IMG/VR virus record: IMGVR_UViG_3300002143_000153
Coordinates: 1 to 64,000 of that record
Strand: one strand, 5' to 3'
DNA from: a virus
DNA length: 64,000 nt
Every line of letters begins with the position of its first letter. The stretch's first letter is position 1. Of the stretch, positions 32,501 to 46,477 are shown piece after piece. Position numbers and translations under genes: made by a program. The notes under the pieces were generated by a model. The model did not search any database, was not told the origin of the DNA, and saw only the letters and a list, made by a program, of their open reading frames with translations.

Positions 32501-35500
32501 AGAGGGTTTTACAGAAACTATTGCAAAAGCACCTGTTCTTTTAAGAATTATGGAAGCATCTAATACAAATGATTTAGTTTCTTTACCTGTTATTAAAACT
32601 GTAAGTATGACTGATAATAATGAATGGTCTATAACAGATAATGCATTACAGTTATTTGCTAATGAAATTGAAAGGGAATATAATGCAATAAAAGAAAACT
32701 TTAAAAAAGGAATTCAAGGCTTTGATGGTATTGACGGATACAATGATATGCAATCAGACAGAAGTGATAAAGGAAGAGGTTTTAAATTCTTTAAAATGGA
32801 TGTTTTATTAAATGATGAAAACAAAAAAGTTTATCTAGAAGCAGCTGAAGCAGGTTTGAATTTTACTGAAGCTTATCCTATAAATAGTTTAAAGAATGAT
32901 TTAAATAAAGAATTGCAATCTTTATTAGATTCATTTGATATAATGCTAAAAGATGAAAAATTAGCTACTCTTCAAAACAATAATAAAATTAAATTTAATT
33001 TTTCAAGTTTAGTTACCGGTTCATTCCCAAAAACAGAAAAAGGTAAAAGAGCAATGGAAGAATTAAATCTTTCTGAGAATGATCAGTCATTTAACATAGC
33101 TCAAATATTTTTAAATAACTTTTTAAATACCATGGCAATTAATCAATTAATACTTGGTGAAGAAGCTAGACTATTTAAAGATCCTTTTATTGATGCAATC
33201 AAAAGAGCTAAAATGCAAAATACAGCACCTATCTCTGTAGAGAGTTATGCTATTGATAAAGCTAAAGGGATTAATCATACATTAGGTGACGACTCTATTT
33301 CATTGATTACAATGGAAGATGCTTTATACGATCAAGTATTTACAGACAAATCTGTAAGAGGTAAAGGAGAAAAAACAGATGCACAAACATATATAACATC
33401 AAAAGGCTCTAGATATTTTAATTATGGTTTAGGGCAATTAACTGACGCAATGGTTCAGCTTCATAATAAAATTGATGCCGGTGAAATAATTACTTCAGAA
33501 GATTGGTATGGTAATAAAAACAATATAGGATTTTTAAAAGCAGGTGCTATATTAAATTCTCAAAAGTATGTGTATGGAGACGGGCAATCTTTTATAAAAA
33601 TGTCTACTGTTACATTAACTAAGGAAGAAACATCTGATTTGGTTAATGGTGTGTGGGTTGCTAAAATTGGTATGGAAGAGTTACATAATACCAGGGAAAT
33701 GATGGAGGAGTATGAAAAAACAAATCCTACAAAAGTTGCTTTTTTAGCGCCTAGATCTGCAGTTAAAATGTTAAAAAGTAGAGTGCATTCACTTTCAAGA
33801 ATAACAGATAATAAATCACCTTTAAAAACAACTGATGTAACACCTATAAATGCAAAAGATTTTGGTTTACAACAAGTTAATCCTTCTAATAAACTAGAAG
33901 TTACTTTACCTAACCAGATTAAATCTTTAATTACCAGTGAACAAAAAGATTCTGAAATAGTAATTATAAACGGTATGCCTCTAGAAATAGGTGCTATTAA
34001 AAAAGCATACCACAAGCTTACAAAAGAAGGTGTTAAATTTGAATTCAGACAAAAGAAAAATCTAATGTTTGATTTGTTGCCTGTACTAGATTTAGATATT
34101 TTATCCTCAATGGAAAAAGATAGTACAATAGATGCAAATTTGGCAACATTCTTACGTGCGGCAAATAACTATTTAAAGTCTTCTGCTGCAGGTAGTAATA
34201 TGGTTGAGTTCTTTAAAACTAATAAAGGTTATGCTAAATATGAATTAAATAATCCTATAACTATTAAAAAGTTTGAACAATTCTTTTTAGCTTATTTTAG
34301 TAAAAAAGTTTTAGCTGAAAAAGTAACAGGTCATGCTTTTGCATTAAAATCTGGTTTTGGAAAATCCATAATTAGAAAAGTATATAGTTTAGATTCAGAA
34401 GGTAATATTGATAAGCAAGATGTTATTAGAAGAAAAGTTCATCAACAAAATGGTAATAAAGAAGTTACTATAGATTTAAGAACAGAAAATGGTTTTGAAC
34501 AACTTAAAGAAGCTTTAAAAAATAATTCTGAAGGTGTTACAGTTATTGATAGACTTAGAATAAACTTACCTAAATATAATAAGATAGGAGCTGTTAAAGA
34601 TTGGGTTGCAACAGGTGAAAGAATAGCTGAAACTATTGTACCTGCTCACTACAAAGAAGTAATGGATCTGATTGAAAATTGGAATTATAATAAGTATGGA
34701 AGAATACCAGATGTAATTGCTAGAATGTTTGTTGTTAGGATTCCATCTCAAGATAAACATTCAGCTTTAAGTGTAGAGGTTGTAGATTTTGATCCTGTAT
34801 TCTTAGGATCAACTGCTGTATTCCCTGATGAACTTATTGAAGTATCGGGTGCAGATTTTGATATTGATAAAGTATTTGCTCATATTAAAGAATGGTATAT
34901 AAAAAAAGGTGAGTTTATTGAATATGGTAGATCTAATGCTACAGAAGAAGAAAAGTATGATGACTATATTTATAATTCAAATAAGTTAATTAATAAAAAA
35001 GATTCTTATTTATATGATGCTCTATATAAATATAATACCATAGGTGGTTCTAAGATTAATGCATTAAAACCAAAGCAAAGAAAAGAACTTCTTAAAGATA
35101 AAAACTTTAAAGAAGAAACTTTAGATGCTTTATCAATGCTTAATTTACCAAGAACTTTTAAGGAATACACAGTCTATAAAGAAAAATATGGTGTTGAACC
35201 ATACAAGGCTGCTATAAATAATCAATTACTTGATTTAAAAATGGCTCTTGTAAGTAATAAAGCTATGACAGAATCTATTAATGGTGATACACCTTTAGCT
35301 TTTCAACCTGCAGATATAGAAGCTTTAAAAGCTGAAAAGACACGTTTATTTAATGAATTCCCTCAATTAAAAGCATTATCAAAAGATGATTTTCCTATTG
35401 ATAGTTTAATAGGTCAATACTATAGTCATCTTAATGTTAAACAAAATGCTAATCTAATTGGCGCTGTTGTGCCTAGAAACGTAGTTATAAATTTCTTAAA

Positions 35501-38465
35501 GGAAATAGATGTAACTTTAAATAGCAAATGGGGTGAAATAAATGTTAATGACCAACCGCTTACTAAATTTGAAAACTTTACTAAAGATTCTTCCGGTGTA
35601 AGATCTCAATATTTGTTATCTAATCTTATAAGTGCTGCTACAGATGATGCTAAAGAAAGAATATTATCTGCACTTGGTTTTAATAAAGATGCTATAGGTA
35701 TTGTAGAAACAATGCTGGCCATGGGGTTATCTGTACATACAGCTACAATGTTTGTTAATGTTCCTGTTATAAGGAATGCTATGAAAGAAAGTGATCCATC
35801 TATAATTAAAACAGCAATATCAAATGTAGGTACAGATAAAGATGTAAATGTTACAGATTTAATTTTATCAAATGCTATTAATAAGACAGCTACTCCAGAA
35901 GAGTTATTAGGTATATATAAAACTTTTAATAAATTTAAAAATATAAAAGTGTTCATAGATAACTTAATACCTATTTTTAATTTAAATACGGGATTTGGTA
36001 AAGATTTTACCAGCTTAGAAGAGGTTCAACAAGGAATTGATGAATTGGGTATATATCTATCAGATGTAGAATTTAATAAAAACAAGTTACCTTTTGATAT
36101 AAGAAATGGTATTAAAAACCATTATATTTCAGGTTACTTAGAAATTTTTAATGAGTTTACAGAAGCAGTTCTACCTAGAGTTTTCTTAACGCAAACTGCT
36201 AAGTTTAAGGAATTAACTTCTGGTATATTTGGTTATAGTAGTTTTTCTGCAAGCAAAAAAGTAAAAGGTAAAGATCAAATTTCTAAAAATGTTTTAGCTT
36301 ATGTAACAATAAAAGCTTACATGAATCAGCTCTTTAAAAATGAAGAAGCTGCAAGTGCAATTGGTGGTTCATTAAACAATGACTTTATTTATGGTAATGG
36401 TAATTCAAACTATAACATTAATACAGTATTTAATAATTTAAGAGAAAACAATAAAGGTAAATCTAATTATTTTTTAGACTATTATGCGTCTACTCAAAAA
36501 GCTTCTGATAAAATTAATACTACAGGTTTAAATCTACTTAACTCAAACAGTTTTGGTAAACTAAGTGATAATGAAAAAGTACGTATTCAAAATGGTTTTC
36601 ATCAATTGTATGGTGAGAAAGAAACAAGAGCTGATGCTGTTAATATAATACACTATGTAATGATTAAAGACGGTCTTCAGTATGCAAATGGAAGTATACT
36701 TGATGCATTGGTTCCTTTTACTATGGAGAATTACTTAAGCGCATCTACAAAAGCATTTAATGTTTTTAAAGGTAATGATAATTTTGAAGACGTTTTTGGT
36801 GTATCATTTGAAGAATTAAAAGATGAAGTAATAACTAAATATGGTAGAGCTACATCATATGCATCAAACATATATAAACTTTCTCCTGAATATTTATTTA
36901 AAGGAAAAGATTCTCCGTTTGCTTATGAAGAAATAAAACTTGATGATACTCTAACATACACTAGAGTCATGTCTAATGATAAGTCTAAACCTAGTAAACC
37001 TTTATTTAAATTTCCTTTATTCATAAATAGAAGAGTAAAAGATCCAATAAATGGTAATTCAGAAGGTTACATAAATAATTATTATGTACTAACAAATGCA
37101 ACTTTAAATGGTGAAGATGTAATGTGGAAGAGAGGTGCTGGTGCCATAGATTCTGATAAAGTAACTTATGTTAAATATGAATTAGAAGGTGCTTATAAAC
37201 AAAACATTATTGGTTTTATGTTTGATAATGAAAACTACAAAAGACCTACAATCAAAGAACTAATAGCGTATAGACAAAGTCTTAATGACTTTTCTTCATA
37301 TAGAGATGACTTTGATGATATTGATTTTGATGATATTGATTTTGAGGATATTTTAATGGAAGAAGCTGAATCTAACAAGTTTACATTTTCTTCAGTTGAT
37401 GAAAGTAGTGTAGTAGCAAATGAAAAAGGAATTGCTATTGATGATATAAATATTTCAGATTACAAACGACCTGAAGGTGTTGAAGATGCGGAGAATAAAT
37501 TGCTTAAGTTTATGGCAAACAAATCAAATCCAGCACAACCAGCTACTGGTGCTGAAGAAGTGTTATCTATACAAGATGTTTTAAAAGAATATACCTTAGA
37601 AGAATTAAAACAAGGAGTTAATCTTAGGTCATTACAGGATAAAGTATTAAAAGGTGATGAAGAAACTATTAAAACTGCATATAACTACTTAAAAGCATAT
37701 GAAAAGGTAGAGTTATTAAAAAAAGAGTATGATAATACAGTAGAAAAAAATAAGGAAATTACTACAAAGATTAATAGTCTAACTCAAAGAATTAATGATA
37801 CTATACCAACAAAAGTTGGAGATGTGCTTGATATATCTAATGATGAAAATATGTCTGATTATAAGGCTAGATTATTAGAGATAACAAGAAATGAAAAAGG
37901 TGCTGTATTAAAAATTATAACAGCAAAGAAAAAAGAATATACACTTGTAGTTACTAAGGAAGGAGAAACTAAAACAGGATATGTAACTAATTTTGTATTT
38001 GAATCAAGCAAAGAAGATGTTGGAACATTAAGAGCGGATAAAGAAAATCTAAAAAGTCAATTAGTTTCTGTTAAAGATTACTTTGATTATGATAATGCAT
38101 TTTCAAAAATATGGAAAGATTATTTTATACCCACTCAACCATCTACTAGTGTTGAACCAGGAGTACAAGAACTATTTGATTCTAATCCTAAATTAGCTAA
38201 TGCTGTATATGGAGCTTTAGGGTTTCCTATCATTAATGAATCAGAAATAACTTATACAGATGAAAACGGTAATCCTTGTGCTAAAATAGGATTAACTAAT
38301 ACTACTAAAGGAACAGGTTGGAAAATAGTTAAAGATTTTAAAGGACAACCTAAACATAGTCAAGGTGGTGTAGATATTATTATTTCTGATAAAGGAATAA
38401 GTATGAGAAAAAGCGGTAAAGATATAAAAGCTAAGTTTGGATTATTAATATCTAATAATAATTAA
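23502..38465 (+). CDS. Virion-packaged single-chain double-psi beta-barrel RNA polymerase polyprotein with zincin metallopeptidase domain
   Basis: RIPSQ (about 34738) and GADFDIDK (DFDID at 34854-34868), the crAss-like RNAP catalytic motif; YHEAFH (30219-30233) followed by EEYMADEF. Confidence 0.9.
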   Translation: MDLKNQNTVTPEGVENSLPINTSISQAWNPDGFEFKPMNEIFDFGPNTDDQVAEEFRRTINEIVPKVNEIIPSSNLEYKKGAPGLNSFEGFSKVFDNPNSYMAGVKDDPLYLKPMISGARSSGFDRIADHHNFKELGWNPLRDNEKYYNDNSSAFWDLTRATKYWAESLGTGFMSSYRSFGDFIDDDSYWLSADYESSDEFEEATRLGSSTRGGFAGFSTNLFLQTGYTVGILSSIAAEELALAAATTASEGIAAPAFLSRTMVNFGRSIKNMANLFDVGKALKGSKSILDSIRSVENAKDLWDASRTIGAAPVKFLGNVFTPETMAVIKSMKSAENTAQGMTAAAKFGKGFGAFYKDMRSINYAMSEGKMEAGFVFNEVFSEGLAIKKRENGGFDLSQEQLKTLNEDALKAATETLWFNAPAIFLTNQLVLGTALRGFSPTMRRIFSDKLPGFAKNIIRSKPVRDKATGVLNKGLYVDVSPKNFRANFINLKKLKSVGAKGTLINTAHGLLRYSAASIGEGLQEVYQEGVQVGVVDYHRALMENPMAPATNLMQQSFKEAVNSQMSGQGLEVFASGFLMGGLVQGPQKLFFEIAPEIYQNKKNPEKFAEYEKNKIEFLKVANEVGDKIQENPFDFWNNSKLHLFSAKEGDDETKKALYEDDNLGFRDAKDDATFMHYHFLMTSEADGLFREQFQDLLNLNDEDLKALYPDSNKPIEDVRNKIQKSIDGIKEYKKKYNDSFDIIQNPINYNQYEKRKRKYNDERIKHAAIEHARMLYLFANDAFEQANKRRYNIENTLITSPVMNDLASNDLTVLLSVDSINLENNMLIREISNLQKAEKPDSKLIKEKQAKLKSLIEYRVILESIYDEESKTYDRDKSSKLKDPLVKYLKTLGAINKKGYIKRDEINGVIAMLVDHNNLDTRAQLFDRTVALFSDPNKILNLVDRISDNLGVLFSNTKKIYVKSVEQAVMNEEMKQLTSQLESIGVVPDPDQFDAFLKSGNANLLTKFHTEKGILDRTIDKEIYDVIQSEINVYNTASNYKPEITEAEEVDEFGNIADESPANKSIDESKFDNIISEELGDDVLSEIQEETPDNDLTIPGDAFFTLQVLNNIYNDYKIKNINKESALLTFQEWVNTNAGNNVVRGLDKLKALWFNSLKASDKTEEENTTLYKSEEGFQDWILENKNDRVVSLIMIMAGFNIKSIESEKTETDLESIVDTATEEVIQIGPNVNIVKRKVINPEDTTDFNYIYELVDNNNISIEAQFLKEAGVDGIYLEENKAGAWAAYTALLKVVPKTDVYSYDGIDVKYGDELENVNGDKFIVLGADTSPSMGQYLKLIPFDKVGLSNEQKKAAMIYVKEKGFSDLYSKPENKITSITYSTNMTKLDHRDINGVYAIQLTSRTTTSGKETIKDAEERLQKTLSLLSAEDLESATVTIRENVRQAPKAFQTGTTPENNLIQNKGDKYTVLITLSPGSIDKVKSLYGENFNGDIAFIRNDRYGFVGRSGNQVSVDAFTDGNLKKYILGNNTDASDLKNQMLRQSELTEKLDELVKDNVSMSLKDFQDTTKINLKISDGIVTWDDVTKSLNDLAYSTYDGVKVVMINTKDGVSYVTDIKNPTEEVAFINKLEEDLEKTPKPEKYGNMLNMALDSGRYVAIVKDANGVVTAVQLRQKSYSKEERTEFYKELLDRAKETADNNVKEGNVSNKTINNDWNDNFNKRFYLKATAGTFIDFKVWPDGNITLSIHNKAKGLEKQLERIRVADLNEYIKDPIKVESLYEVLNNNDVVVKFNKYQSEKINLSGESVTRVFATTAGVSEIIEKTVTDINPNVRINKKLYLEYTSDLIEAEKIIPGVELEDQKGEVLTPQETAIATDKVSDINQIQAARESQEELNSDEITAEADIERELFTTPISLNNWTSVEHGKYIKLLTLRGDLEKRDLLRNLDPKSSWQLYAVENLSEEEAGDILSIIKEAKKADIEIRKNKSRTIDSQPFQRNNTTGANSNFERNSTDVKRIGLSIDKKINDGKTSNEIIQELAAQGIVAMTNTLDRFREFISDRQSGKTTQTFEEWYNETVSELDAELDAELDALNTNTEQTSETLSLEDQIKKLEGRKSILDKQINDEAKAQGVNRYNLKQGSEEYQQLDSEIKNLKSQRKNAFKIVNTPEALAEDLKIDDFINWAKRNLPDFIQIVDIAELKNKLKANGYTAGQFTMALRNIAGGVEVSGTIYTGPSSMIAYHEAFHSVFRMLLTDEEQTKLLKIAKDEVRAKFKTPEALMEDMLQFQTLSPLYKSMSLKRLEREYLEEYMADEFAKFKQNPRSTKTSSIIKSLFNRIIEWIKAALKRYSKNELINVFENIDAGKYKGGAVADNFYTKDLDGDITIEAYKAIPYESINGELFASELFLDPATSDLLIRMIANTYLERVSKAKTNIEENKVKDQLSNLLSKYSKLNDEDQTEEITSEKVYIGAVIADYADLYYPGRDIYNGDKFSDSQAEKLEQIYKALTLDDGEKVADEVADYISLFDMKFEEINNEIDYLENSIGSRSVDQYGRENQEIGIQPSKKIRLYIASTIVTSKDMFGNTELLNGEPIKVAVKYQDVHNGLMLAAMNEIDPFKMITRMYYHSRRSLNTAAVLDRFLNDVGIINGSRSMSDVIDSGELPTDIKDTLLYHEFIKTYKNSRFDYAFHLKDKKLGKAIIISASQSDAATAQIDSWKKFHGDKFELFKQNDKALNQAVSSLTLLSKTLGKNKITNKELSALADSLSKNIFEDLGISFSRGFLEVSISSSIVNKKKYQKNLTEVGENIRLITKEDALQMLLALRVKVTSDVGSKIVKFRPENLFVDVEGKGVSSRLMSLALGNAHFDEAIGATVFTDVNDKLIYAHQHQTYHSRRIAQLNSETFLTELVEENAFLEKNILTDNLAFRQMAKDKMLAITRVSGTKNADLSNSQIDNLSDAALKEEGVTYGDMSSAEFINTLVDLYVQSFNTKSETNEKITYKNEEGFTETIAKAPVLLRIMEASNTNDLVSLPVIKTVSMTDNNEWSITDNALQLFANEIEREYNAIKENFKKGIQGFDGIDGYNDMQSDRSDKGRGFKFFKMDVLLNDENKKVYLEAAEAGLNFTEAYPINSLKNDLNKELQSLLDSFDIMLKDEKLATLQNNNKIKFNFSSLVTGSFPKTEKGKRAMEELNLSENDQSFNIAQIFLNNFLNTMAINQLILGEEARLFKDPFIDAIKRAKMQNTAPISVESYAIDKAKGINHTLGDDSISLITMEDALYDQVFTDKSVRGKGEKTDAQTYITSKGSRYFNYGLGQLTDAMVQLHNKIDAGEIITSEDWYGNKNNIGFLKAGAILNSQKYVYGDGQSFIKMSTVTLTKEETSDLVNGVWVAKIGMEELHNTREMMEEYEKTNPTKVAFLAPRSAVKMLKSRVHSLSRITDNKSPLKTTDVTPINAKDFGLQQVNPSNKLEVTLPNQIKSLITSEQKDSEIVIINGMPLEIGAIKKAYHKLTKEGVKFEFRQKKNLMFDLLPVLDLDILSSMEKDSTIDANLATFLRAANNYLKSSAAGSNMVEFFKTNKGYAKYELNNPITIKKFEQFFLAYFSKKVLAEKVTGHAFALKSGFGKSIIRKVYSLDSEGNIDKQDVIRRKVHQQNGNKEVTIDLRTENGFEQLKEALKNNSEGVTVIDRLRINLPKYNKIGAVKDWVATGERIAETIVPAHYKEVMDLIENWNYNKYGRIPDVIARMFVVRIPSQDKHSALSVEVVDFDPVFLGSTAVFPDELIEVSGADFDIDKVFAHIKEWYIKKGEFIEYGRSNATEEEKYDDYIYNSNKLINKKDSYLYDALYKYNTIGGSKINALKPKQRKELLKDKNFKEETLDALSMLNLPRTFKEYTVYKEKYGVEPYKAAINNQLLDLKMALVSNKAMTESINGDTPLAFQPADIEALKAEKTRLFNEFPQLKALSKDDFPIDSLIGQYYSHLNVKQNANLIGAVVPRNVVINFLKEIDVTLNSKWGEINVNDQPLTKFENFTKDSSGVRSQYLLSNLISAATDDAKERILSALGFNKDAIGIVETMLAMGLSVHTATMFVNVPVIRNAMKESDPSIIKTAISNVGTDKDVNVTDLILSNAINKTATPEELLGIYKTFNKFKNIKVFIDNLIPIFNLNTGFGKDFTSLEEVQQGIDELGIYLSDVEFNKNKLPFDIRNGIKNHYISGYLEIFNEFTEAVLPRVFLTQTAKFKELTSGIFGYSSFSASKKVKGKDQISKNVLAYVTIKAYMNQLFKNEEAASAIGGSLNNDFIYGNGNSNYNINTVFNNLRENNKGKSNYFLDYYASTQKASDKINTTGLNLLNSNSFGKLSDNEKVRIQNGFHQLYGEKETRADAVNIIHYVMIKDGLQYANGSILDALVPFTMENYLSASTKAFNVFKGNDNFEDVFGVSFEELKDEVITKYGRATSYASNIYKLSPEYLFKGKDSPFAYEEIKLDDTLTYTRVMSNDKSKPSKPLFKFPLFINRRVKDPINGNSEGYINNYYVLTNATLNGEDVMWKRGAGAIDSDKVTYVKYELEGAYKQNIIGFMFDNENYKRPTIKELIAYRQSLNDFSSYRDDFDDIDFDDIDFEDILMEEAESNKFTFSSVDESSVVANEKGIAIDDINISDYKRPEGVEDAENKLLKFMANKSNPAQPATGAEEVLSIQDVLKEYTLEELKQGVNLRSLQDKVLKGDEETIKTAYNYLKAYEKVELLKKEYDNTVEKNKEITTKINSLTQRINDTIPTKVGDVLDISNDENMSDYKARLLEITRNEKGAVLKIITAKKKEYTLVVTKEGETKTGYVTNFVFESSKEDVGTLRADKENLKSQLVSVKDYFDYDNAFSKIWKDYFIPTQPSTSVEPGVQELFDSNPKLANAVYGALGFPIINESEITYTDENGNPCAKIGLTNTTKGTGWKIVKDFKGQPKHSQGGVDIIISDKGISMRKSGKDIKAKFGLLISNNN
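29733..29767 (+). repeat. Tandem 12-bp repeat GAACTTGATGCA x3 (ELDA)
   Basis: Read directly; the third copy lacks the last base. Confidence 0.9.
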
Positions 38466-38466
38466 C

Positions 38467-40296
38467 ATGAAAAAACAAAATATTGAAGTTGAAGGTGGAG
38501 AATTATTAATAATGTCAAAAGAAGGACATTATGCAGTAATACCAGCTAAACATAGACAAGAAGTAATGGATATTATTAAAGATGGTTGTGATAATTGTAT
38601 TAATAATTATATACAAACATTACCTAAAGATAGTGATTATGCAGAAGATGGTACAGTTATATCTGAATTATATAAACAAAAAACTGGTAAAGATTGGAGT
38701 ACAGCTAAACAAGAAGGATTAACTACTGGTAGTTATGATGATAACATGAAATTAAGAGATAGATTAGTAAAAGGTGAATTTGATAATAAACAAATGAACA
38801 GTAATAATTCTAAACAAATTATCAATAATACCACTCAAAATCAGGATTATACAAAAGCTAAAGATTTTAATGAGGCTTTTAAAATAGCAAGAAACCAATT
38901 AGGAACTAATCAAATATTTGAATATCAAGGTAGAAAATATGGAACTAATATATTAGGTGAGAAGTTTGAACCTTCTGAAGAAGTATTAATAAAAGCTAAT
39001 ATGAATAAACCAGAAGTAAAACAAAGATTAAACAAACAAAATAATATGGTATCTTCTGTTTATTCAGATAAGAAAACAACTAAAGTTGTACCAGAATACC
39101 AGGATTGGGATAAGGTAAAAAAGAGAACTAAAGAATTAAATAAAATGAGCCAAGCTGATATAATAACAGGTTATCATAAAGATTCAGAAGAACAGTACCT
39201 AGTATTAGACAAAAAGAGGGGAAAGATGCATTTATATAAAGGAGATAAAGAAATATCTTCATATAACGTAGGAACTGGAGCTAATGTTGGAGATGAGCAG
39301 ACAAAAACAGTAGTTAAAAACGGTAAAGTTGATTGGGATGCCGGAAATAAGATGACAGGAGCTGGTATATATACAGTATCAGGAGTAAATCCTAAGAATA
39401 GTCATTATTCTGATGCACCTACTTGGAATTTTAAAAATGAACAAGGTATTGAAGTTCCTATGGCTATTCACAGTAGTTTTGGGGATAGAACAGCTAAACT
39501 AAAAGATAATGATGAAACTAATAATAGGCTCTCTAATGGTTGTATAAATGGTATTTGTTACAATCTTAAAGAACTTTATAAAAATGGATACAAAGAAGGA
39601 CAAAAGTTGTATGTACTTCCTGATGACGAAAGCAATTCATACACATTGAGTAACGGAAAGTTAATTCTAAAATCAAATGATAACAATGTAAATAAAACAG
39701 TTAATACACTAAATTACAAACCAATTAAAATAGTATACCCTAAAGATTACAGTCCTGAAATTCCTAAAATGGCAAGTAGTATAGTAAATAACAAACAAAA
39801 CCTAATGAAAGATTTAAAAATAAATGGAGATATCTATAATGACATAGCAGAACTTACTCTTGGTGTAGCTGGTCAAGAAACTGACTATGGAAATTCTGTA
39901 AAATATAAATTAAAAACAGAATTAGTACAAGACGCATTAAAAACAGTTACAGGAAATAACAGTTATAATAGTAAGGGGATAACCCAAATTAAATATGATG
40001 CTCAAATTAAAAATGAAGAAGTAGCTAAATTATTTAATAAATATGGAATTACTAAAGATAACTTAGAAAGCGGGGATAAAGCTGCTATTGCTCAATTAAT
40101 ACTCTTTGCTACAATGTATAAATATGAACTTCCTAACTATAAAGATGTAAATATAGATGATATGGATAAACTGCTGTATTTAAATCAAGGTAAGTCAAGT
40201 GAATTAAAAAATAAAACAGCAACACCCAATGAAAATATTTATATAAGAAATGTAAAAGAATATAAAAATAAATTTAAACTTAAAGAACTTAATTAG
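38467..40296 (+). CDS. L,D-transpeptidase (YkuD-like) fused to a lytic-transglycosylase/lysozyme-like domain
   Basis: LVLDK..MHLY..VGTG..TGAGIYTV..AIH..SNGCIN; C-terminal QETDYG..KGITQIK..LNQG..YIRNV. Confidence 0.7.
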   Translation: MKKQNIEVEGGELLIMSKEGHYAVIPAKHRQEVMDIIKDGCDNCINNYIQTLPKDSDYAEDGTVISELYKQKTGKDWSTAKQEGLTTGSYDDNMKLRDRLVKGEFDNKQMNSNNSKQIINNTTQNQDYTKAKDFNEAFKIARNQLGTNQIFEYQGRKYGTNILGEKFEPSEEVLIKANMNKPEVKQRLNKQNNMVSSVYSDKKTTKVVPEYQDWDKVKKRTKELNKMSQADIITGYHKDSEEQYLVLDKKRGKMHLYKGDKEISSYNVGTGANVGDEQTKTVVKNGKVDWDAGNKMTGAGIYTVSGVNPKNSHYSDAPTWNFKNEQGIEVPMAIHSSFGDRTAKLKDNDETNNRLSNGCINGICYNLKELYKNGYKEGQKLYVLPDDESNSYTLSNGKLILKSNDNNVNKTVNTLNYKPIKIVYPKDYSPEIPKMASSIVNNKQNLMKDLKINGDIYNDIAELTLGVAGQETDYGNSVKYKLKTELVQDALKTVTGNNSYNSKGITQIKYDAQIKNEEVAKLFNKYGITKDNLESGDKAAIAQLILFATMYKYELPNYKDVNIDDMDKLLYLNQGKSSELKNKTATPNENIYIRNVKEYKNKFKLKELN

Positions 40297-40297
40297 T

Positions 40298-40744
40298 ATG
40301 AGCTGCAACCCAACATATAAAGGAAAAAGATATAACTCTTTAGAGGAGTTATATAAAGTTAATGGAATTAATCCACAACAAAAACAACAAGCTCAACAAC
40401 AATATTCTCATGCAGGTGTACCTGCAATACAAGCTAATGAAGTTGAAGAACAAACTGATGATTTTGATGAAATAGATGTTGAAGATATACTTGATAATGA
40501 TACCTTTGATGAACTAAATGATTTAGGAATGGAATTTAAAAATAAGTTTTCATCTGTAGAAAATATAGATATCAAAATTAGTAACTTTTATGATGAGTAT
40601 ATTGATGGTAAGAAAGAAGCACAAGAATCTTTAAAGGCTGCTAGAATAGGAACAACACTAGAAGGTTTCTCTGAATCATTTAAAAAGAGCGGGTTTACAA
40701 AAATTGAAGAGTACCTAGATGATCAAAAATGCCATATAAAATAA
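40298..40744 (+). CDS. Chimeric acidic protein, probably carrying the displaced C-terminus of the RNAP
   Basis: DDFDEIDVEDIL..NKFSSV..IDIKISN resembles RNAP DDFDDIDFEDIL..NKFTFSSV..IDDINISD. Confidence 0.45.
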   Translation: MSCNPTYKGKRYNSLEELYKVNGINPQQKQQAQQQYSHAGVPAIQANEVEEQTDDFDEIDVEDILDNDTFDELNDLGMEFKNKFSSVENIDIKISNFYDEYIDGKKEAQESLKAARIGTTLEGFSESFKKSGFTKIEEYLDDQKCHIK

Positions 40745-40750
40745 TATAAA

Positions 40751-43700
40751 ATGAGTAAATGTTATAATAAAAATACCGCGGAGTATAAAGCTTTACAAAC
40801 AGCATTTCCAAATGATGCTGCTGTAAATAACGTAATTTCACAATGGCAAAACCTAACAAAACTGGATGAGTTTCCAACTGTTATACAAGCTAAAAAAATA
40901 ATTAAGGATGGTAAAGTTGCATTTTCTTTAAAGCAAAGAAGTTTTGCTGAGTCTTTACTAGGTAATTTAAGCCGTTTGAAAATGGCAAGTAAATCCAATA
41001 AGCATGGTGGGTATTACTATGTTAACAATACTCTGGAAAATCAAAGAGTATATGATAAAGATGCTTTAGAAAACAATAGAAAAAGAATAGTAAGATACCT
41101 TAGCATCAATAATATTCCTGAAGGTACTGTTACTTTAGCAAAAACAAAAAGATCTTATAGGGTAACTATAAATGAAGATATGTTTACTGCTAAAGATATA
41201 TTACCTAAAACTAGAAATAATACAGGCACACATACCACCGATGTTTTAAGTCACTTAAAAAGAATATTTCCAGATTTAAGTATATACATACCATCAGTAG
41301 AAAAAGCTGAAGCTTATTATAATAGTTTAGATCCATCTGTAAAAAGCGGAGTTCCTTTTTCTGAAGTTAAATCTTTTTATTATGATGGTAATGTAATTCT
41401 TATAAAAGGACGTGTTGATAATGAAACAGCAATTGAAGAAGTACTGCATGCATTTACAGATACTTTAGCTTATGTAAAGCCTGATTTATTTAAAAGTCTT
41501 TTGGAAGAAGCTAAAAAAACATTTCCTGTATTAAGTCAAGAGATAGAAGATGCTTATACTAAAAGAAGAAAGTTTACTCAAAAACAAAGAGATCTAGAGT
41601 TAGTAACACAAGCTTTAACAAGACACTTTGCTAAAGAGTATGAAACAGAACCTACTAAATCTTTTTTAGCAAGAGTTGCTGACATGCTTAAATGGTTTGC
41701 TAGTGTCATTAAAGACTTACATAAATTTATTACAGTCAATGGTATAATCAAATTAAAAGTTGAAGATATTAAATCAACAACTAAAATGTCTGATATTGCT
41801 AAATTATTAAATACTAGTGAAATACAATTTGAGTTAACTAAACCTAAACAGTCACAAGTAAGATATGCATTATCAGATGAGAAAGCTGAATACTTAAAAA
41901 GAATTCTTAAGCCTGCTAATCCAGTGCAAACTCAGATGGCTAATAAGTTATTAAGTGTTGTGCAAAATACAGATAGCGTTGAAGATTCTTATTCTGTAAG
42001 CAAAGCTAATTTAAATGAAGGTGATGATATTGTAATTTTAAATGAAGCTGATCATACTTATTATAATCTTTTTGATCTAAAAAAAGAATATACTTCTGCT
42101 ACAACAGCAATTAATGGTAAGATGAGTAATGTAGAACAAGACAATGTTAAACTCAATCTTGAAATTGGAAATGATTTTGATAGCATTGCTGAAGGTATTG
42201 CAGCATGGAAAACTTTTGATGAAATAAAAGGTAGCATTAAAAAGTTAAGTGAAGAGCAAGCAGTGAAAGCTTACTCTGAACTATATGATTATATTAATAA
42301 TTCAATAAGAAAACCGGGTGATATAATAATTCCTCAAGTTGTTGTGCATGATGATAAAACAGGTCTTGCTGGAACTATTGACTTTTTATTAATAACACCT
42401 CAAGGTAAATTAAAAATCATTGACATTAAAACAAGTAAATACAAGTACGCTACAACAGAAAATACTAAGTATGATGAACCTTGGGATATAAAGCCTGACT
42501 CTAGACTTTATCCTTATAATGTAAAACGTCTTTCAGCAAAACAAAAACATAATCTTCAAGTAAACTTGTATAGAAGAATGCTTGAAAATATGGGTTATGA
42601 AATTGAAGATTCTGATCAAGCTACAAGTACTTATCATATTTGGGTTGATATTACAGGTTCCAAAAAAGATCAAGTATGGGCTGGTAATTTTGAATTAGAA
42701 CAACCTTATTTTCATCCCATTACAGAAAATGAATTTTATGTTAATGCACTTATACCTAAAAATGTAAATACCATTTCAAAGAATAAGATTGATAATGCAC
42801 GTAAAGAGTCTGATGATTATCCATTAATGAATGATGAAGATTTTGCTGATATAAGTTCTGATATGGGTATGACAGATGATGCTGGTGGTATTGAATTTGA
42901 ACTTCTATTTCAAGGATTAGAAAATTACAGAACAAAGTTAATTCAAAGAATTGAAGTTTTAAAAACGGTAAAAGGAGCCATATTCACAGACCTAAGTAAA
43001 GAACAAACAATTAAAAGATTAAACCTAGCTATAACAAATGTTACACTAGCTTTAACTTCAGGTAATGGTCAAAAAGCTTCTGATATATATACAAAGTTTC
43101 TTACAGATTCAATAAGGGAAGTAGAAACTTTAGAAAAATATTTGATAGATGAAAATAATATAGCTAACTCTGATTACATTTCAAAAGCTAGAAACGCTAA
43201 ATCATTTGCAGAATCTTTTGAAGGTTTGACAAGTATTTCTTCTACTTATGGTAATCTTAATTCAACACAAACTAAATTAAAAGATAATTTAATTAATAGT
43301 TTAAATAGACTTGCTGGGTCTACAATAAATCAAAGAATAAGTATTGCTGATAAAGCTATATTAAAGCATGTTCAAAAACTAACAAAAGACACAAGTACAA
43401 AAGAGATGTCAGATGAAGAATTTGAATTGTTATTTAAAGAAGCTGAAAAAATAACAGGAGCAACATTAAATTTTACAGATATAACTACATCTAGTGATAC
43501 TCTTTTAGCTGTAATGAAAAAAATATGGCATCAAAAAAGAGAAGAAGCTTTAGATAAAATTGGTGAAAGAGAGCAAGCAATTGTAGCTGCAGGGTCTTAT
43601 CTTAGAAAACTTTCTCCTGGATCAACAGATAAAGAAGTTTTTGAATTTATAATTGAAACAGATGATAAAGGAAATCACACAGGTCGTTATGTTGTTGAAA

Positions 43701-46477
43701 TAGGTGAGCAATATTGGAATATATATGATGAACTTGAAAAACAAATAAATGATACAGATGGCACAAGATTACAGTATAGAGAAATACTTGATTTAGAAAA
43801 TGCAAATCCTAAAGATATAGAATTCAATAAAGATTTATATCATAAGAAAAAAGCTTGGAATAAGTTTTTAAATCCTGAAACTAGAAATGGTTCTGATTAT
43901 TCAGATGGTGATTATCATTACTATACTGAAGAATTTAAAACAATAAGATCTGAATATAAAGAATTTATACCCGTTGGTGAAAATGGTTATTGGCAATTTA
44001 AAAGCAACATTTCAGCAGATGAACAATCTTATTATAATTTAACGTACACAAATGCGGTTGAATACTATAAATCTCAAAATATTGAGGATATACCTACAGG
44101 TATGGTTATTAAAACTTTTGGTAATTTTCCTTTAAAGAAATATATAAAGATAAGAGACTTCAGCAGTGCTGGTAAAGACATGCGTAGTACTAAGTATAAA
44201 ACTATTATGGATGCTGCTTCTGGGGATGCTTTAGGGCAAGCCAGAAAATCTTTTTATATGGTTGTAAAGAAGTATTATGAGGATGGTATGCTAAAACAAA
44301 TTCCTGAGAACGTTAGAGATTATATGTTAGGTAAAACACCTAGAATACAAGCTAATCTTGCAAATCAACTTGCTAAAAGTCCTGCTCCAGTAACTAGTTT
44401 TTTAGCTAGAACTAAGGAAAATATAAAAGATTTCTTTACAGAAACAACACGTTTAAGTAGAGTTAACGTAGATGAAAAAGGTGAAATTGTAGATTCATTA
44501 CCAATTATGTTTGTTGGTACACTAAAAGATGATGAATCAATAAAAAAACTTCAAGATGAAATTGAAGAGCTTAAACAAAAATATGCTAACTCTGAAATAA
44601 CTTCTACCTTTTATGATATAAAAATAAAAGAACTACAATCTAAAGAAATAAGTTTAAGAAGTAAACCAAGAGCTGAAGAGTTAAGTTGGGATGTTGTTTC
44701 AACGTTACTTACATTTAGTGTAATGGCTCAGACATATGAGACAATGTCATCAATAGAAGATACACTATTATCTTTTGTTAAAGTTATAGAAGATAGAAAG
44801 TATAAAGAACCCTCTTCTTCTAAAGCAAAAAAAATGATATCTGCAAAATTTTCTAGTACATTCAATAGAAAAGGTGGTGATGTAGAAGCTTTAGCAGAAG
44901 GTAGAGATTCTAATAATGCTAAACACGCAAGAGCATTTATGAATATGGTATTCTATGATAATGCTGAAGTTACTAAAGGTATGGCTGAAAAAGCTGTAGA
45001 TAAAGTTATACAATACAGTTCATTAGCTTATGTAGGCTTTAACGTTTTTGGTAACTTTAATAACTATGTTTTAGGTAGAATAAATAATGGTATAGAAAGC
45101 ATGGGTCAAAGATTTGTTTCTAGAGAAGCTTATGTAAGAGCGTCTAAAGAATTTAATAAAAGAGCTATTGCCGATCTAATTCATAGAACATCATACCTAG
45201 CCATCAAAAAAACAACTGGTGCAAAATATGATCCTTATAAAGCAATAAGTAAATATGAAGCTTTTGTTGACTTATATAGAATGATGGATCAAAAGTCTGA
45301 TCTTAGAGAAGTTGGTAGAAATTATGATGAAAAAAGTTTTTATCAAAAGTATGTTGCAGGCATAGGTTATATATTCCAAGATGCAGCTGAGTATAATGTT
45401 CAGACTAAAATGGGTATGGCTATAGTAATGGATACATATATACTTAATGAATCAACCGGGCAAATTTTAAGTTTGTACGATGCATTTGATTTTAATGGTG
45501 AACAAGAATTACAACTTAAAGAAGGGTTTACTAAAATGGTAAAACCTAAAAAAGATATACCAACATTTAAAACAATGCTTCAAGGGAATGTTTATCAAAA
45601 AGATGCTTCTGGTAATTTAATTTATGATATACAAGGTGACTATAATGAAAAGTTTAGATATGATCTTAGGATGAAAATTCGTGAGGTTAATAAACAAATC
45701 CATGGTAACTATGCTTATGAAGATAGAATGGTTATTCAAGTTCATACTTGGGGTAAACTACTAGCTCAATTTCATAAATGGGTTGTTCCTGCAATTAGGG
45801 CTAGATTTCAAAAAAAGTATTTTGATGAAAATTTAGGCTGGTTGGAAGGACGTTATAACTCTTATGCTAACTTTATGGTTTATTTGTTTAAGAATATTGC
45901 AAAAACAAAAGATACTGAAAAAAGCATAATAGAAAACTGGATGATAGATACAGGTTTTAAAAATAATAATTCTCAGAAAGATGAACAGTTTATAAATGCT
46001 GCTTTAAATGTACATAGAACAAATGCGGAACTTGCAATTTTAATAGCTACTATAATAACTCTAAATTTATTAAAAGGTATATGGGCTGATGATGATGATG
46101 ATGAAACAGTTAAAAGACTTAAAAATTTATCATTGTATCAATTAAGTAGAGTAAGATCTGAGATGCAATTATTTTTACCTTTACTTGGTGTATCAGATGC
46201 CTTACAGTTTTTTGAAAGTCCTTTTGCAACAACTAAAGTTTTAGGCGAATTTGGTGATGTAATGGATAAATCTTGGGATTTAATGGCTGGTGGTGCAAGA
46301 TATTATATTACAGGTAATGATGAAGATTGGTATGGGAATAAAAATGTTTATTACCAAAGAGGTAGAAGAGCTGGTCAAAAGAAAATTACCAAAGAAATAA
46401 TTGATTTAGGACCAGGATTGTTAGTTTGGAAGAAATGGGATGATGCTATTCAGAATAACACTTTTTATATTGATTAA
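40751..46477 (+). CDS. Large virion protein with degenerate zincin motif, PD-(D/E)xK nuclease domain and C-terminal hydrophobic helix
   Basis: AIEEVLH; AGTIDFL..KIIDIKTS..QVNLY; ELAILIATIITLNLL. Confidence 0.7.
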   Translation: MSKCYNKNTAEYKALQTAFPNDAAVNNVISQWQNLTKLDEFPTVIQAKKIIKDGKVAFSLKQRSFAESLLGNLSRLKMASKSNKHGGYYYVNNTLENQRVYDKDALENNRKRIVRYLSINNIPEGTVTLAKTKRSYRVTINEDMFTAKDILPKTRNNTGTHTTDVLSHLKRIFPDLSIYIPSVEKAEAYYNSLDPSVKSGVPFSEVKSFYYDGNVILIKGRVDNETAIEEVLHAFTDTLAYVKPDLFKSLLEEAKKTFPVLSQEIEDAYTKRRKFTQKQRDLELVTQALTRHFAKEYETEPTKSFLARVADMLKWFASVIKDLHKFITVNGIIKLKVEDIKSTTKMSDIAKLLNTSEIQFELTKPKQSQVRYALSDEKAEYLKRILKPANPVQTQMANKLLSVVQNTDSVEDSYSVSKANLNEGDDIVILNEADHTYYNLFDLKKEYTSATTAINGKMSNVEQDNVKLNLEIGNDFDSIAEGIAAWKTFDEIKGSIKKLSEEQAVKAYSELYDYINNSIRKPGDIIIPQVVVHDDKTGLAGTIDFLLITPQGKLKIIDIKTSKYKYATTENTKYDEPWDIKPDSRLYPYNVKRLSAKQKHNLQVNLYRRMLENMGYEIEDSDQATSTYHIWVDITGSKKDQVWAGNFELEQPYFHPITENEFYVNALIPKNVNTISKNKIDNARKESDDYPLMNDEDFADISSDMGMTDDAGGIEFELLFQGLENYRTKLIQRIEVLKTVKGAIFTDLSKEQTIKRLNLAITNVTLALTSGNGQKASDIYTKFLTDSIREVETLEKYLIDENNIANSDYISKARNAKSFAESFEGLTSISSTYGNLNSTQTKLKDNLINSLNRLAGSTINQRISIADKAILKHVQKLTKDTSTKEMSDEEFELLFKEAEKITGATLNFTDITTSSDTLLAVMKKIWHQKREEALDKIGEREQAIVAAGSYLRKLSPGSTDKEVFEFIIETDDKGNHTGRYVVEIGEQYWNIYDELEKQINDTDGTRLQYREILDLENANPKDIEFNKDLYHKKKAWNKFLNPETRNGSDYSDGDYHYYTEEFKTIRSEYKEFIPVGENGYWQFKSNISADEQSYYNLTYTNAVEYYKSQNIEDIPTGMVIKTFGNFPLKKYIKIRDFSSAGKDMRSTKYKTIMDAASGDALGQARKSFYMVVKKYYEDGMLKQIPENVRDYMLGKTPRIQANLANQLAKSPAPVTSFLARTKENIKDFFTETTRLSRVNVDEKGEIVDSLPIMFVGTLKDDESIKKLQDEIEELKQKYANSEITSTFYDIKIKELQSKEISLRSKPRAEELSWDVVSTLLTFSVMAQTYETMSSIEDTLLSFVKVIEDRKYKEPSSSKAKKMISAKFSSTFNRKGGDVEALAEGRDSNNAKHARAFMNMVFYDNAEVTKGMAEKAVDKVIQYSSLAYVGFNVFGNFNNYVLGRINNGIESMGQRFVSREAYVRASKEFNKRAIADLIHRTSYLAIKKTTGAKYDPYKAISKYEAFVDLYRMMDQKSDLREVGRNYDEKSFYQKYVAGIGYIFQDAAEYNVQTKMGMAIVMDTYILNESTGQILSLYDAFDFNGEQELQLKEGFTKMVKPKKDIPTFKTMLQGNVYQKDASGNLIYDIQGDYNEKFRYDLRMKIREVNKQIHGNYAYEDRMVIQVHTWGKLLAQFHKWVVPAIRARFQKKYFDENLGWLEGRYNSYANFMVYLFKNIAKTKDTEKSIIENWMIDTGFKNNNSQKDEQFINAALNVHRTNAELAILIATIITLNLLKGIWADDDDDETVKRLKNLSLYQLSRVRSEMQLFLPLLGVSDALQFFESPFATTKVLGEFGDVMDKSWDLMAGGARYYITGNDEDWYGNKNVYYQRGRRAGQKKITKEIIDLGPGLLVWKKWDDAIQNNTFYID

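Follow-up and report, generated by a model that had tools for sequence, protein, structure and literature searches.

The genes of crAss-like phages, those for RNA polymerase among them, are known to be interrupted by introns and inteins (PMC7886860). The DNA analysed here (hereafter the window, 64,000 nucleotides of IMG/VR record IMGVR_UViG_3300002143_000153) is from the genome of a marine crAss-like phage, and here the interruption takes a different form. In all probability, a foreign block replaced a spacer inside the tail of the giant RNA-polymerase gene, splitting off its C-terminal domain.

Judged from sequence and predicted structure, the giant protein comprises a crAss-type RNA polymerase module together with other parts. 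The label "RNAP" is based on a motif and a predicted fold rather than on sequence-family membership: the DFDID motif is invariant in alignments A1 and A2, and the predicted model of aa 3400-4120 resembles PDB 6VR4_A (Foldseek E 1.9e-10, prob 1.00, TMq 0.47). The gene is related to 55 IMG/VR loci, and the closest orthologue, P0001, is 98-99% identical (99.4% over giant aa 1-1906, 97.8% over aa 2072-4706). Of 52 related IMG/VR loci, 50 have the giant ORF abutting a homologue of the 1908-aa ORF, with a gap of 2-15 nt or, in one locus, a short overlap; the other two have breaks inside the conserved body. No gene lies between the two in any of the 52, none of which conserves the three-gene layout of the window. 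By these sequence comparisons the layout is unique to the window genome among the relatives examined.

The initial annotation described the ORFs accurately: a giant frame stopping at 38465, TQPSTSVE (here placed at 38133-38156), a 148-aa ORF running from MSC to QKCHIK, and MSKC at 40751 (Table 1). Its statement that the frame switches after TQPSTSVE needs correction: the same frame continues, and only the origin of the sequence changes. The giant ORF is native to about 38156, and its final ~100 codons are donor-like.

Table 1. Features of the interrupted locus (window coordinates)
Feature	Position	Strand	Source or remark
Giant virion-protein gene, 4987 aa	23502..38465	+	ORF list; TAA stop 38463-38465
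DFDID motif, aa 3785-3789, putative catalytic metal-binding site of a two-barrel RNA polymerase	34854..34868	+	
AQPATGAE linker, left border of swappable tail module	37533..37556	+	
Tail module A, 192 aa, LSIQDVLKEYTLEELKQG..., exchangeable	37557..38132	+	
TQPSTSVE linker, aa 4878, native, last residues before shared arm	38133..38156	+	
Left homology arm, motif PGVQELFDSNPKLANAVYGALGF	38157..38225	+	alignment
Gene end of donor origin, PIINESEITYTDENG...GLLISNNN, followed by the stop	38226..38465	+	
Complete 609-aa gene: EVEGGE N-terminal module, YkuD (L,D-transpeptidase fold), C-terminal region with lysozyme-like motifs	38467..40296	+	
YkuD domain, residues 243-373, His335, SNGCIN motif (Cys359)	39193..39585	+	
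148-aa ORF, starts MSCNPTY, ends QKCHIK	40298-40744	+	ORF list
Donor-derived start of 148-aa ORF, MSCNPTYKGKRYNSLEELYKVN	40298..40360	+	
Right homology arm, GINPQQKQQAQQQYS	40361..40410	+	alignment
Native giant-protein C-terminus, now body of 148-aa ORF: acidic disordered stretch, then 4-helix domain (residues ~88-148), invariant Cys145	40411..40744	+	
1908-aa ORF, starts MSKC, invariant Cys4	40751..46477	+	directly after giant ORF in relatives

The block itself (2,135 nt, 38226-40360) holds the end of one gene, all of a cell-wall-enzyme gene and the start of another gene. Positions 38152-40410 are 81-89% identical at the nucleotide level to an otherwise unrelated phage contig, IMGVR_UViG_3300038674_000325. 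This contig gives four collinear nucleotide matches (73-89%) and none in the window outside the block, the flanks being unmatched. Such comparisons show the block to be of foreign origin and bear out the initial proposal of a gene-end/gene/gene-start block from another phage within the RNAP tail. The three-part layout (gene end, EGGE/YkuD-type gene, MSC gene start) is kept in at least four such unrelated contigs, and the same gene-boundary block is present in L002, L062 and L063. The donor search returned nothing closer than 81-89% nucleotide identity, or 73% for the enzyme protein. Codon usage is uninformative on the origin of the block, since GC is 0.275-0.298 throughout.

The tail module at giant aa 4878-4987 is 79% identical in protein to a 596-aa ORF of L003 and 75% identical to the native C-terminus of giant protein P0029; this gene-end form is also seen in L062 and L063. 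The middle gene, correctly recognized at the outset as a complete L,D-transpeptidase gene, encodes a predicted peptidoglycan-acting enzyme that matches Pfam PF03734 YkuD (25.9 bits against a cut-off of 23.4), is 66-70% identical to a 631-aa ORF of L003 and has 213 homologues. The gene is absent from the records of four relatives, two 100%-complete relatives among those that lack it, and is not native to this genome. At the right-hand end, 40272-40410 is 88.6% identical in nucleotides to the start of a 347-aa ORF of L003, and gene starts of this type also occur in L002, L062, L063 and P0153-P0155.

The native C-terminus has been displaced to the chimeric mini-ORF, as was originally suggested and as protein comparisons show. 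Mini-ORF residues 39-148 share 94.5% identity with the final 110 residues of P0001 (5145-5254; E 1.3e-67), whose C-terminus matches ~40412-40744, close to the 40410-40744 anticipated in the initial annotation. The full-length orthologues share a C-terminal helical domain of ~65 aa whose Cys is invariant; it was seen in all of P0001-P0016 in full, in most of the longer set from their last residues, and in ~35 distinct locus sequences (alignment A5). An HMM of this domain built without the window matches the mini-ORF at E 1e-27, and the split-off domain is predicted to be folded (pLDDT 92-95 over residues 90-140, 89 over 141-148). The chimeric ORF has no counterpart among 5.8 billion proteins. 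Relative to the X1 contig, all 7 differences across 40426-42000 lie within the mini-ORF (7 in 319 nt vs 0 in the next 1,256 nt), changing only 3 codons; this cluster could reflect relaxed constraint on the split-off domain.

The acidic stretch of the mini-ORF does resemble 37305-37460, as had been noted, but the likeness is weak (27.7 bits, E 0.001, without composition correction; 84% over 32 nt). As proof of displacement it was rejected: both stretches also occur in the intact P0001 and constitute an internal repeat of the native protein. Small MSC...Cys proteins also occur free-standing, and the chimera retains the N-terminal MSC and C-terminal Cys architecture of such donor-type proteins, by chance or selection.

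An uninterrupted allele exists. In X3 record 25, 38133-38225 is followed by 207 nt and then by 40361-40455, so that 207 nt stand in place of the window's 2,135; X1 contigs join 38225 to 40372-40375. Both junctions of the block fall in short conserved motifs, ELFDSNPxLA..GF and PQQKQQAQQ, with donor similarity starting at ~38152-38157 and ending at 40410. The left-arm motif is common to the uninterrupted allele, P0001 (aa 4872) and donor-type phages, and is found alone in ~20 other phage contigs; the right-arm motif is common to donor-type genes and the uninterrupted allele, and lies at aa 4964 in P0001. Both breakpoints are placed by alignment, on the native side against the P0001 protein and short contigs from metagenomes (403 bp, depth 7). 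Rather than being simply inserted, the block took the place of a spacer of ~207 nt flanked by two conserved motifs.

The tail is also variable upstream of the block. Runs X1 and X3, like a minor X15 contig, carry 261 other letters in place of 37557-38132, and a minor X16 contig departs from the window sequence at 37556. The match to the window begins at the TQPSTSVE linker (38133) in the uninterrupted metagenome contig and in X15 and X16 contigs. Tail module A is missing in P0001, and copies 86-88% identical occur in unrelated 2.8-3.1-kaa proteins (P0021, P0022).

In the proposed scheme, the ancestor would have carried a ~207-nt spacer between the in-frame motifs ELFDSNPxLAxxVYxALGF and I(T/N)PQQKQQAQQQYS. 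The donor would have been an otherwise unrelated phage with the same two motifs in two different genes, at most three genes apart. Double crossover during co-infection, through motif arms of ~70 nt and ~50 nt, is the most likely way in which the 2,135-nt block took the spacer's place. Since the incoming block brought a stop codon, a complete gene and a start codon with it, the single gene would have become three.

Could the arrangement be an artefact, the block having been joined to the giant gene at short motifs of co-occurring phages? The arms are short repeats common to phages of the same habitat, X15 and X16 contain a mixture of tail variants, and breaks in Logan contigs occur at 37556 and 38158. 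That said, 38133-42000 is spanned without a break, at flank depth and with 2-5 differences, by a 27.9-kb contig of X15, which runs on upstream into the giant gene, and by a 9.4-kb contig of X16. A single study supplied the high-share runs X15-X18, which may hold the source sample and so are not fully independent. These separate Logan assemblies, from two runs labelled with different organisms, cross both arms and all three gene boundaries, and no other contig found comes closer to the donor-like block than 81-89% identity. Contigs from two other sequencing runs having crossed the junctions, the check called for initially, mis-assembly is very improbable. Still harder to credit is an ancestral split, with the relatives' single giant gene arising through loss of the middle gene and fusion. 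Domain-boundary motifs permit fusion as easily as fission, and free-standing small MSC...Cys proteins are known, but the fused form is found in 50 of 52 related loci (27-58% identity), in all 16 closest orthologues and in the nearest relative (98-99% identical); moreover, the block, and not the rest of the genome, is similar in nucleotides to a different phage lineage.

No more plausible is a self-splicing or self-mobile element (group I/II intron, intein or homing cassette) whose removal would still allow one giant protein to be made. The precedent in crAss-like phage genes (PMC7886860) is set against a lack of any Rfam match at E<=1 in 37000-41500, of endonuclease or Hint domains in domain searches and of terminal repeats other than the two motif arms; in-frame stops and starts rule out intein splicing, and the block is an ordinary three-gene layout in donor-type phages. 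A less remote, if still unlikely, reading accepts the event as real but takes it as damage: a required C-terminal domain lost, the 148-aa ORF an unused remnant, the variant defective or transient. The invariance of the domain at the C-terminus in all relatives, the uniqueness of the chimeric ORF and the clustering of differences from X1 within it all point this way. Against it, the mini-ORF is intact, with a donor-supplied start codon, 1-nt spacing and MSC...Cys architecture, and differs from X1 by only 3 codons while staying 94.5% identical to the fused form. The cassette is at full depth in runs with at least two different upstream tail variants, and it therefore persisted through further recombination.

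Replacement by a foreign block thus remains the favoured reading, and its products would be a giant protein whose last ~100 aa are foreign, a cell-wall enzyme with a YkuD domain gained with the block, and a chimeric protein of 148 aa that joins 38 donor residues at the N-terminus to the native C-terminal domain. The three ORFs, tightly packed with 1-nt gaps, are probably co-expressed. Modelling hints that the 148-aa protein may dock on the N-terminal part of the 1908-aa protein. Mini-ORF residues 75-148 and the first 200 aa of that protein give an ipSAE of 0.59 (best control 0.00), with runs agreeing in at least 66% of contacts and partner pLDDT at least 74; of 80 solved complexes 58 reach the ipSAE mark, as do 2 of 110 mismatched pairs, and values of 0.60 or below occur in only 7 of the 80 and in both passing mismatched pairs. 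The domain's Cys145 and the next protein's Cys4 are both invariant. The 148-aa protein would supply the C-terminal domain in trans, and the acquired enzyme would be a virion-associated peptidoglycan-acting protein. Across this phage family, exchangeable modules follow one another along the giant protein's tail, which closes with a fixed helical domain at the C-terminus.

The domain that closes the giant proteins of this family is carried in the window by the 148-aa mini-ORF (40298-40744), and the 4987-aa giant ORF (23502-38465) ends in about 100 foreign residues, without the family C-terminal domain and its cysteine. A search with the last 1388 residues of the giant protein recovered 31 giant proteins, the closest of which, P0001 (5254 aa), is 99.4% identical over residues 1-1906 and 97.8% identical over residues 2072-4706. 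As the initial annotation had expected of orthologue C-termini, the last 110 residues of P0001 align with residues 39-148 of the mini-ORF at 94.5% identity (E 1.3e-67). A homologous domain, with one invariant Cys near its end, closes P0002-P0016 and about 35 distinct IMG/VR giant ORFs, and an HMM of the domain, built with the window left out, found the mini-ORF (E 1e-27) and nothing else in the 94-kb genome. The domain is modeled as a compact four-helix unit (pLDDT 92-95), and fold searches with the mini-ORF gave a best Foldseek E of 9.4 and, in a wide VIA-align search, a best Z of 5.2, to generic helical bundles only.

The 148-aa protein is chimeric: its N-terminus, which includes Cys3, comes from the donor side, and Cys145 belongs to the native domain. 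It is unique in a collection of 5.8 billion proteins, and its design, an MSC start with a Cys at the end, is shared by free-standing donor-type proteins. When window positions 40426-42000 were compared with a contig from sequencing run X1, all seven differences fell within 319 nt of the mini-ORF and none in the next 1,256 nt, a clustering with a chance of about 1e-5 by our own arithmetic if differences were evenly spread. Three codons are changed (D55A, F56Y, N96E) and two changes are silent; the pattern suggests that the mini-ORF either has its own history of recombination or has evolved faster since the split.

The genes around the cassette are tightly packed. A frame switch had been proposed after the TQPSTSVE linker, yet the giant ORF simply continues in the same frame for 103 codons to its stop. 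The complete YkuD gene reported to follow is indeed there, as a 609-aa ORF (38467-40296) that starts one base later and scores above the Pfam cut-off, and so is the 148-aa ORF (MSCNPTY...QKCHIK), which starts one base after the stop of the 609-aa ORF; the 1908-aa ORF (MSKC..., 40751-46477) begins six bases beyond the mini-ORF stop. The likeness once noted between an acidic mini-ORF stretch and positions 37305-37460 is present but weak, and since both stretches occur in intact orthologues it is a native internal repeat and no proof of displacement. Stop-codon read-through from the mini-ORF into the 1908-aa ORF, which share a frame, was considered and rejected: the stop is TAA, a normal start follows it, and homologues begin at the same Met. 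Promoter and terminator scans stayed at chance level.

An alignment-based scan yielded 55 related loci. A homologue of the 1908-aa ORF is present in 52 of them; it sits next to the giant ORF in 50, across a gap of 2-15 nt or with a short overlap, and in the remaining two the conserved body itself is frameshifted or broken. No gene lies between the giant and 1908-aa homologues in any of the 52, and the three-gene layout, whose conservation in relatives would have spoken against capture, is absent from these loci. No homologue of the 609-aa protein was found in the complete records of two relatives or in the relatives' loci. Locus L004 has a separate 204-aa ORF with the C-terminal domain, a candidate second cassette event that proved to be a frameshift inside the conserved body.

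A separate search of the block for another donor lineage, as the initial annotation had advised, gave a clear answer. Nucleotide similarity between the window and IMGVR_UViG_3300038674_000325, a 79-kb contig, is limited to four collinear pieces, all in and around the block and none elsewhere in the window. In that contig the pieces span three successive ORFs, of 596, 631 and 347 aa; they fall within the first, run along the second, a YkuD ORF, and cover the start of the third. Loci L002, L062 and L063 show the same order of parts: the first gene ends in a module ...QGGVDI...GL(L/I/V)I..NN, the second starts ..(I/V)E(V/A)E(G/S)GE, and the third starts MSC.PTYKG.RYNSLEEL...QQK. The YkuD protein has 213 homologues, the best of them only 73% identical, and the true donor is therefore unsampled. 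Composition gave no mark of foreign origin: GC is 0.275-0.298 and GC3 0.07-0.18 with no contrast, and the codon-usage scan proposed for the block was uninformative.

Features of the exchanged region and its matches to the donor-type contig
Feature	Position	Strand	Nucleotide identity	Matched record	Remark
Linker-bracketed tail module	37533-38156				In-frame AQPATGAE and TQPSTSVE around a 576-nt module
TQPSTSVE linker	38133-38156	+			Followed by 103 more codons in the same frame; stop 38463-38465
Donor match 1	38152-38453		84%	IMGVR_UViG_3300038674_000325	
Donor match 2	38443-39731		81%	IMGVR_UViG_3300038674_000325	
Donor match 3	39788-39891		73%	IMGVR_UViG_3300038674_000325	
Donor match 4	40272-40410		89%	IMGVR_UViG_3300038674_000325	

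The limits of the block are marked by two short motifs. Donor-type similarity starts at the PGVQELF codons (~38155) and ends after QQYS (40410), and both arm motifs (38157-38225 and 40361-40410) lie inside the tails of P0001, P0002, P0003 and P0007, 92-205 residues apart, as well as inside single ORFs of many other phages. The uninterrupted allele was recovered when contigs of public runs were aligned to window positions 36500-42000. A 403-bp contig of run X3 reads 38133-38225, then 207 other letters, then 40361-40455, and is an allele with a short spacer between the motifs and a frame continuing into the native C-terminus. Contigs of run X1 join 38225 to 40372-40375, and one of them has 519 extra letters between 40410 and 40426, the form seen in P0001. 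From these contigs it follows that some 207 nt of a natural uninterrupted form have given way to 2,135 nt in the window (38226-40360), flanked by arms of ~70 nt and ~50 nt. A homologous (homeologous) double crossover at the two shared motifs during co-infection is the simplest account.

Other routes to the same arrangement fare less well. Self-splicing elements have a precedent in RNAP genes of related phages; here there is no Rfam match at E<=1 in 37000-41500, and the block contains two stop and two start codons, which speaks against an intron or intein. Domain, Rfam and repeat searches found no recombinase, endonuclease, ribozyme or terminal repeat with the block. The donor-type contig carries 1,073 nt after the tail module (the donor-like last ~100 residues of the giant ORF) that could have been deleted in the window; the first genes of L062 and L063 stop directly after that module, as in the window, and the module, at 75% identity, is the native end of P0029, a distantly related 4060-aa giant protein, so no deletion need be assumed. 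That the join is an assembly chimera, the artifact raised at the outset, is countered by other assemblies. In four runs of a single 2024 study, 89-96% of sampled words are present, and Logan contigs of two of these (X15 and X16, with different organism labels; 27.9 kb and 9.4 kb) cover 38133-42000 unbroken with two and five differences, which places the cassette in physical linkage with the giant gene; the support is strong and, as the four runs may include the source sample, not fully independent. On its upstream side the X15 contig extends into the giant gene by way of an additional 442-nt module flanked by two TQPSTSVE copies, and the one cassette contig of X16 (depth 29.9) is entered from upstream by two variants (depth 9.6 and 19.9).

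Exchange is not confined to the double crossover proposed for the cassette. In X1, X3 and a minor X15 contig, a 261-nt module (the P0001 form) stands in place of 37557-38132, and a minor X16 contig also diverges at 37556, indicating that module exchange is ongoing upstream beside the cassette. The 576-nt module is found at 86-88% identity in P0021 and P0022, unrelated proteins of 2.8-3.1 kaa. A second internal difference from P0001 lies at giant residues 1907-2071 (window 29220-29714), wholly different in sequence and 165 aa long here against 55 aa in P0001; in proteins otherwise 98-99% identical, this extends module exchange beyond the tail.

The virus record is a single contig of 93,957 bp, of which the window covers the first 64 kb; GC content is ~0.28 throughout. 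Very large ORFs follow one another on the same strand (2022, 1621, 593, 865, 1019, 4987, 609, 148 and 1908 aa) and presumably encode virion or ejected proteins. The label of crAss-type virion RNAP gene for the 4987-aa ORF appears justified by a motif and a predicted fold. DFDID at residues 3785-3789 is a DFDxD metal-binding motif, invariant in 13 and 20 aligned relatives (alignments A1 and A2), and the AlphaFold model of residues 3400-4120 (pLDDT 74.9, pTM 0.74) has 6VR4_A as its top Foldseek match (E 1.9e-10, probability 1.00, 691 columns, TMq 0.47), followed by other RNAPs and QDE-1 at E 0.005 or weaker. Sequence searches with the giant protein, as a single sequence or as the 20-sequence core profile A2, gave no PHROG or PDB match and one sub-threshold, unrelated Pfam match; PHROGs and NCBIfam gave no match for the giant, YkuD, mini or 1908-aa proteins. 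The phage GenBank collection gave no match to 36500-41500 (blastn) or to the mini-ORF (tblastn), and single-query IMG/VR searches returned no loci from giant residues 4250-4600 or from P0029. A HEAFH zincin-like motif at giant residue 2240 (window 30219-30233) is invariant in the 13-sequence alignment A1, has no Pfam match, and is a candidate site for a protease that processes the modular giant protein. Upstream, the 1621-aa ORF (11108-15973) has a LysM domain (E 2.5e-10) and the 2022-aa ORF (5040-11108) a VWA domain (E 1.9e-6), so that cell-wall-binding cargo was already present before the YkuD gene was gained.

The 609-aa ORF would add a peptidoglycan-acting enzyme to this cargo, as predicted from its motifs. 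Residues 243-373 match Pfam YkuD PF03734 at 25.9 bits against a cut-off of 23.4, and the homologue on the donor-type contig scores 27.0 bits. The YkuD signature places a catalytic Cys in (S/T)xGC(I/V)(R/N), with a His upstream; His335 and SNGCIN at residues 356-361 fit it, with Asn where many members have His before Gly-Cys. Residues ~440-600 include GQETDYG and GITQIK, suggestive of a lysozyme-like region, and gave no match to SLT (PF01464) at E<=1; in the homologue P0131 the SLT match lies outside the part aligning with the window protein. Residues ~70-120 of the 865-aa ORF (17782-20379) read NIEAEGGE...KGPRHSKGGV...FIFSD in one stretch. The cassette has similar pieces on two genes, at the giant ORF's end (KGQPKHSQGGVDI) and where the YkuD ORF starts (NIEVEGGE); they may represent a small domain or interaction motif across the gene boundary. 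About ten otherwise different proteins of 368-679 aa (P0142-P0151) resemble the YkuD protein over its first ~70 residues alone (73-88% identity), which suggests that the N-terminal EGGE/DGCxxC module is itself a shuffled adaptor.

Cysteines recur at the ends of these proteins. In the giant C-terminal domain an invariant Cys stands 2-5 residues before the end (window 40730-40741; loci L004-L057), the 1908-aa protein always starts M-x-(x)-C-x-N-x-N (window 40751-40762) and its Cys4 is invariant in all homologues, and donor-type proteins start MSC or MAC, many with a Cys near the end (P0153-P0155; L066, L073, L076, L078). Such terminal residues may form a head-to-tail connector between cargo proteins. 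If this is so, the split-off domain has kept both connectors, and fission would still yield a working chain. The predicted complex of the mini-ORF C-terminal domain (residues 75-148) with the first 200 residues of the 1908-aa protein gave an ipSAE of 0.59 against 0.00 for the best control, with runs agreeing in at least 66% of contacts and a partner pLDDT of at least 74. Of 80 solved complexes 58 passed the ipSAE mark, as did 2 of 110 mismatched pairs; only seven of the 80 solved complexes, and both passing mismatched pairs, scored 0.60 or less. Since 0.59 gives weak support, docking of the split-off domain on the N-terminal 200 residues is a tentative reading, with an appreciable chance but less likely than not.

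Phages of the crAss-like group characteristically carry large virion proteins with DFDxD (10.1101/2020.03.07.982082; PMC7886860), and the window resembles phage phi14:2, whose virion-packaged RNAP (gp66, PDB 6VR4; 10.1101/2020.03.07.982082) likewise has DFDxD in a very large virion-protein gene. In both phages the gene belongs to a block of giant genes, here in a ~94-kb phage; the window protein differs in its modular effector-like tail, its C-terminal domain on a separate ORF and the lack of a detectable Pfam or PDB sequence match. At 4987 aa it is also more than twice the length of phi14:2 gp66 (2180 aa). Introns, inteins and recoded stops interrupt crAss-like RNAP genes (PMC7886860), and the window block is none of these. 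Polyvalent proteins of phages and conjugative elements are giant, packaged and multidomain; their effector-like domains vary and they have a peptidase-like HExxH site (Iyer et al. 2017, PMC5512222), and cassette-style recombinational variability has been raised for their loci (PMC5512222). In the same way, the tail modules of the giant proteins vary between the window, P0001-P0016 and sequencing runs. Here exchange is seen directly, between near-identical genomes and between unrelated phages; it takes place at defined in-frame motifs, and what the cassette brings is more than a domain, namely a whole gene together with gene boundaries.

Polymorphic toxin loci (CDI/Rhs) combine a constant body with a variable C-terminal part behind a short conserved peptide motif, where recombination occurs. 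In contrast, the window has no toxin/immunity pair, two motifs bracket the exchanged part, and the constant element is the extreme C-terminal domain, cut off by the exchange. In phage mosaicism, as reportedly described by Hendrix and colleagues and for the lambdoid 'boundary sequences', unrelated phages recombine at short shared sequences to give novel joints; here the joints lie inside a coding region, one essential-looking gene becomes three, and filled and empty alleles are both recoverable from public data. The N4 virion RNAP gp50, a giant polymerase that is injected, requires its C-terminal domain for encapsidation. Its terminal domains serve packaging or ejection and not catalysis, as may apply to the giant protein here, although gp50 has a T7-like polymerase fold and no sequence relation; a packaging role for the window domain is only an analogy.

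The new element is direct documentation that unrelated phages exchange DNA at defined in-frame motifs; the cassette brings gene boundaries with it, splits a conserved gene and leaves the invariant terminal domain on a new small ORF. It is conceivable, though unlikely, that across unrelated lineages of marine Bacteroidota phages the in-frame junction peptides (ELFxSNPELAxxVYxALGF, ITPQQKQQAQQxYSQYL and QP(S/A)T..E linkers) serve as universal arms for exchanging cargo modules, including whole genes with their stops and starts, and that terminal docking domains with an invariant Cys (the giant C-terminal Cys, Cys3/4 of the next protein, MSC...C) may link the cargo proteins head-to-tail. With the filled allele, the uninterrupted allele and the donor-type architecture all in public data, the path from one gene to three by cassette capture, a natural gene fission, can be read base by base. 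The ~65-aa C-terminal domain, invariant across the family and already on a separate ORF in nature, is easy to test for packaging, docking or ejection. In crAss-like phages the tails of giant ejected proteins serve as platforms for exchange, delimited by short conserved peptides; modules traded at these peptides pass between phage lineages and can bring enzymes with them, such as the predicted peptidoglycan-acting YkuD protein.
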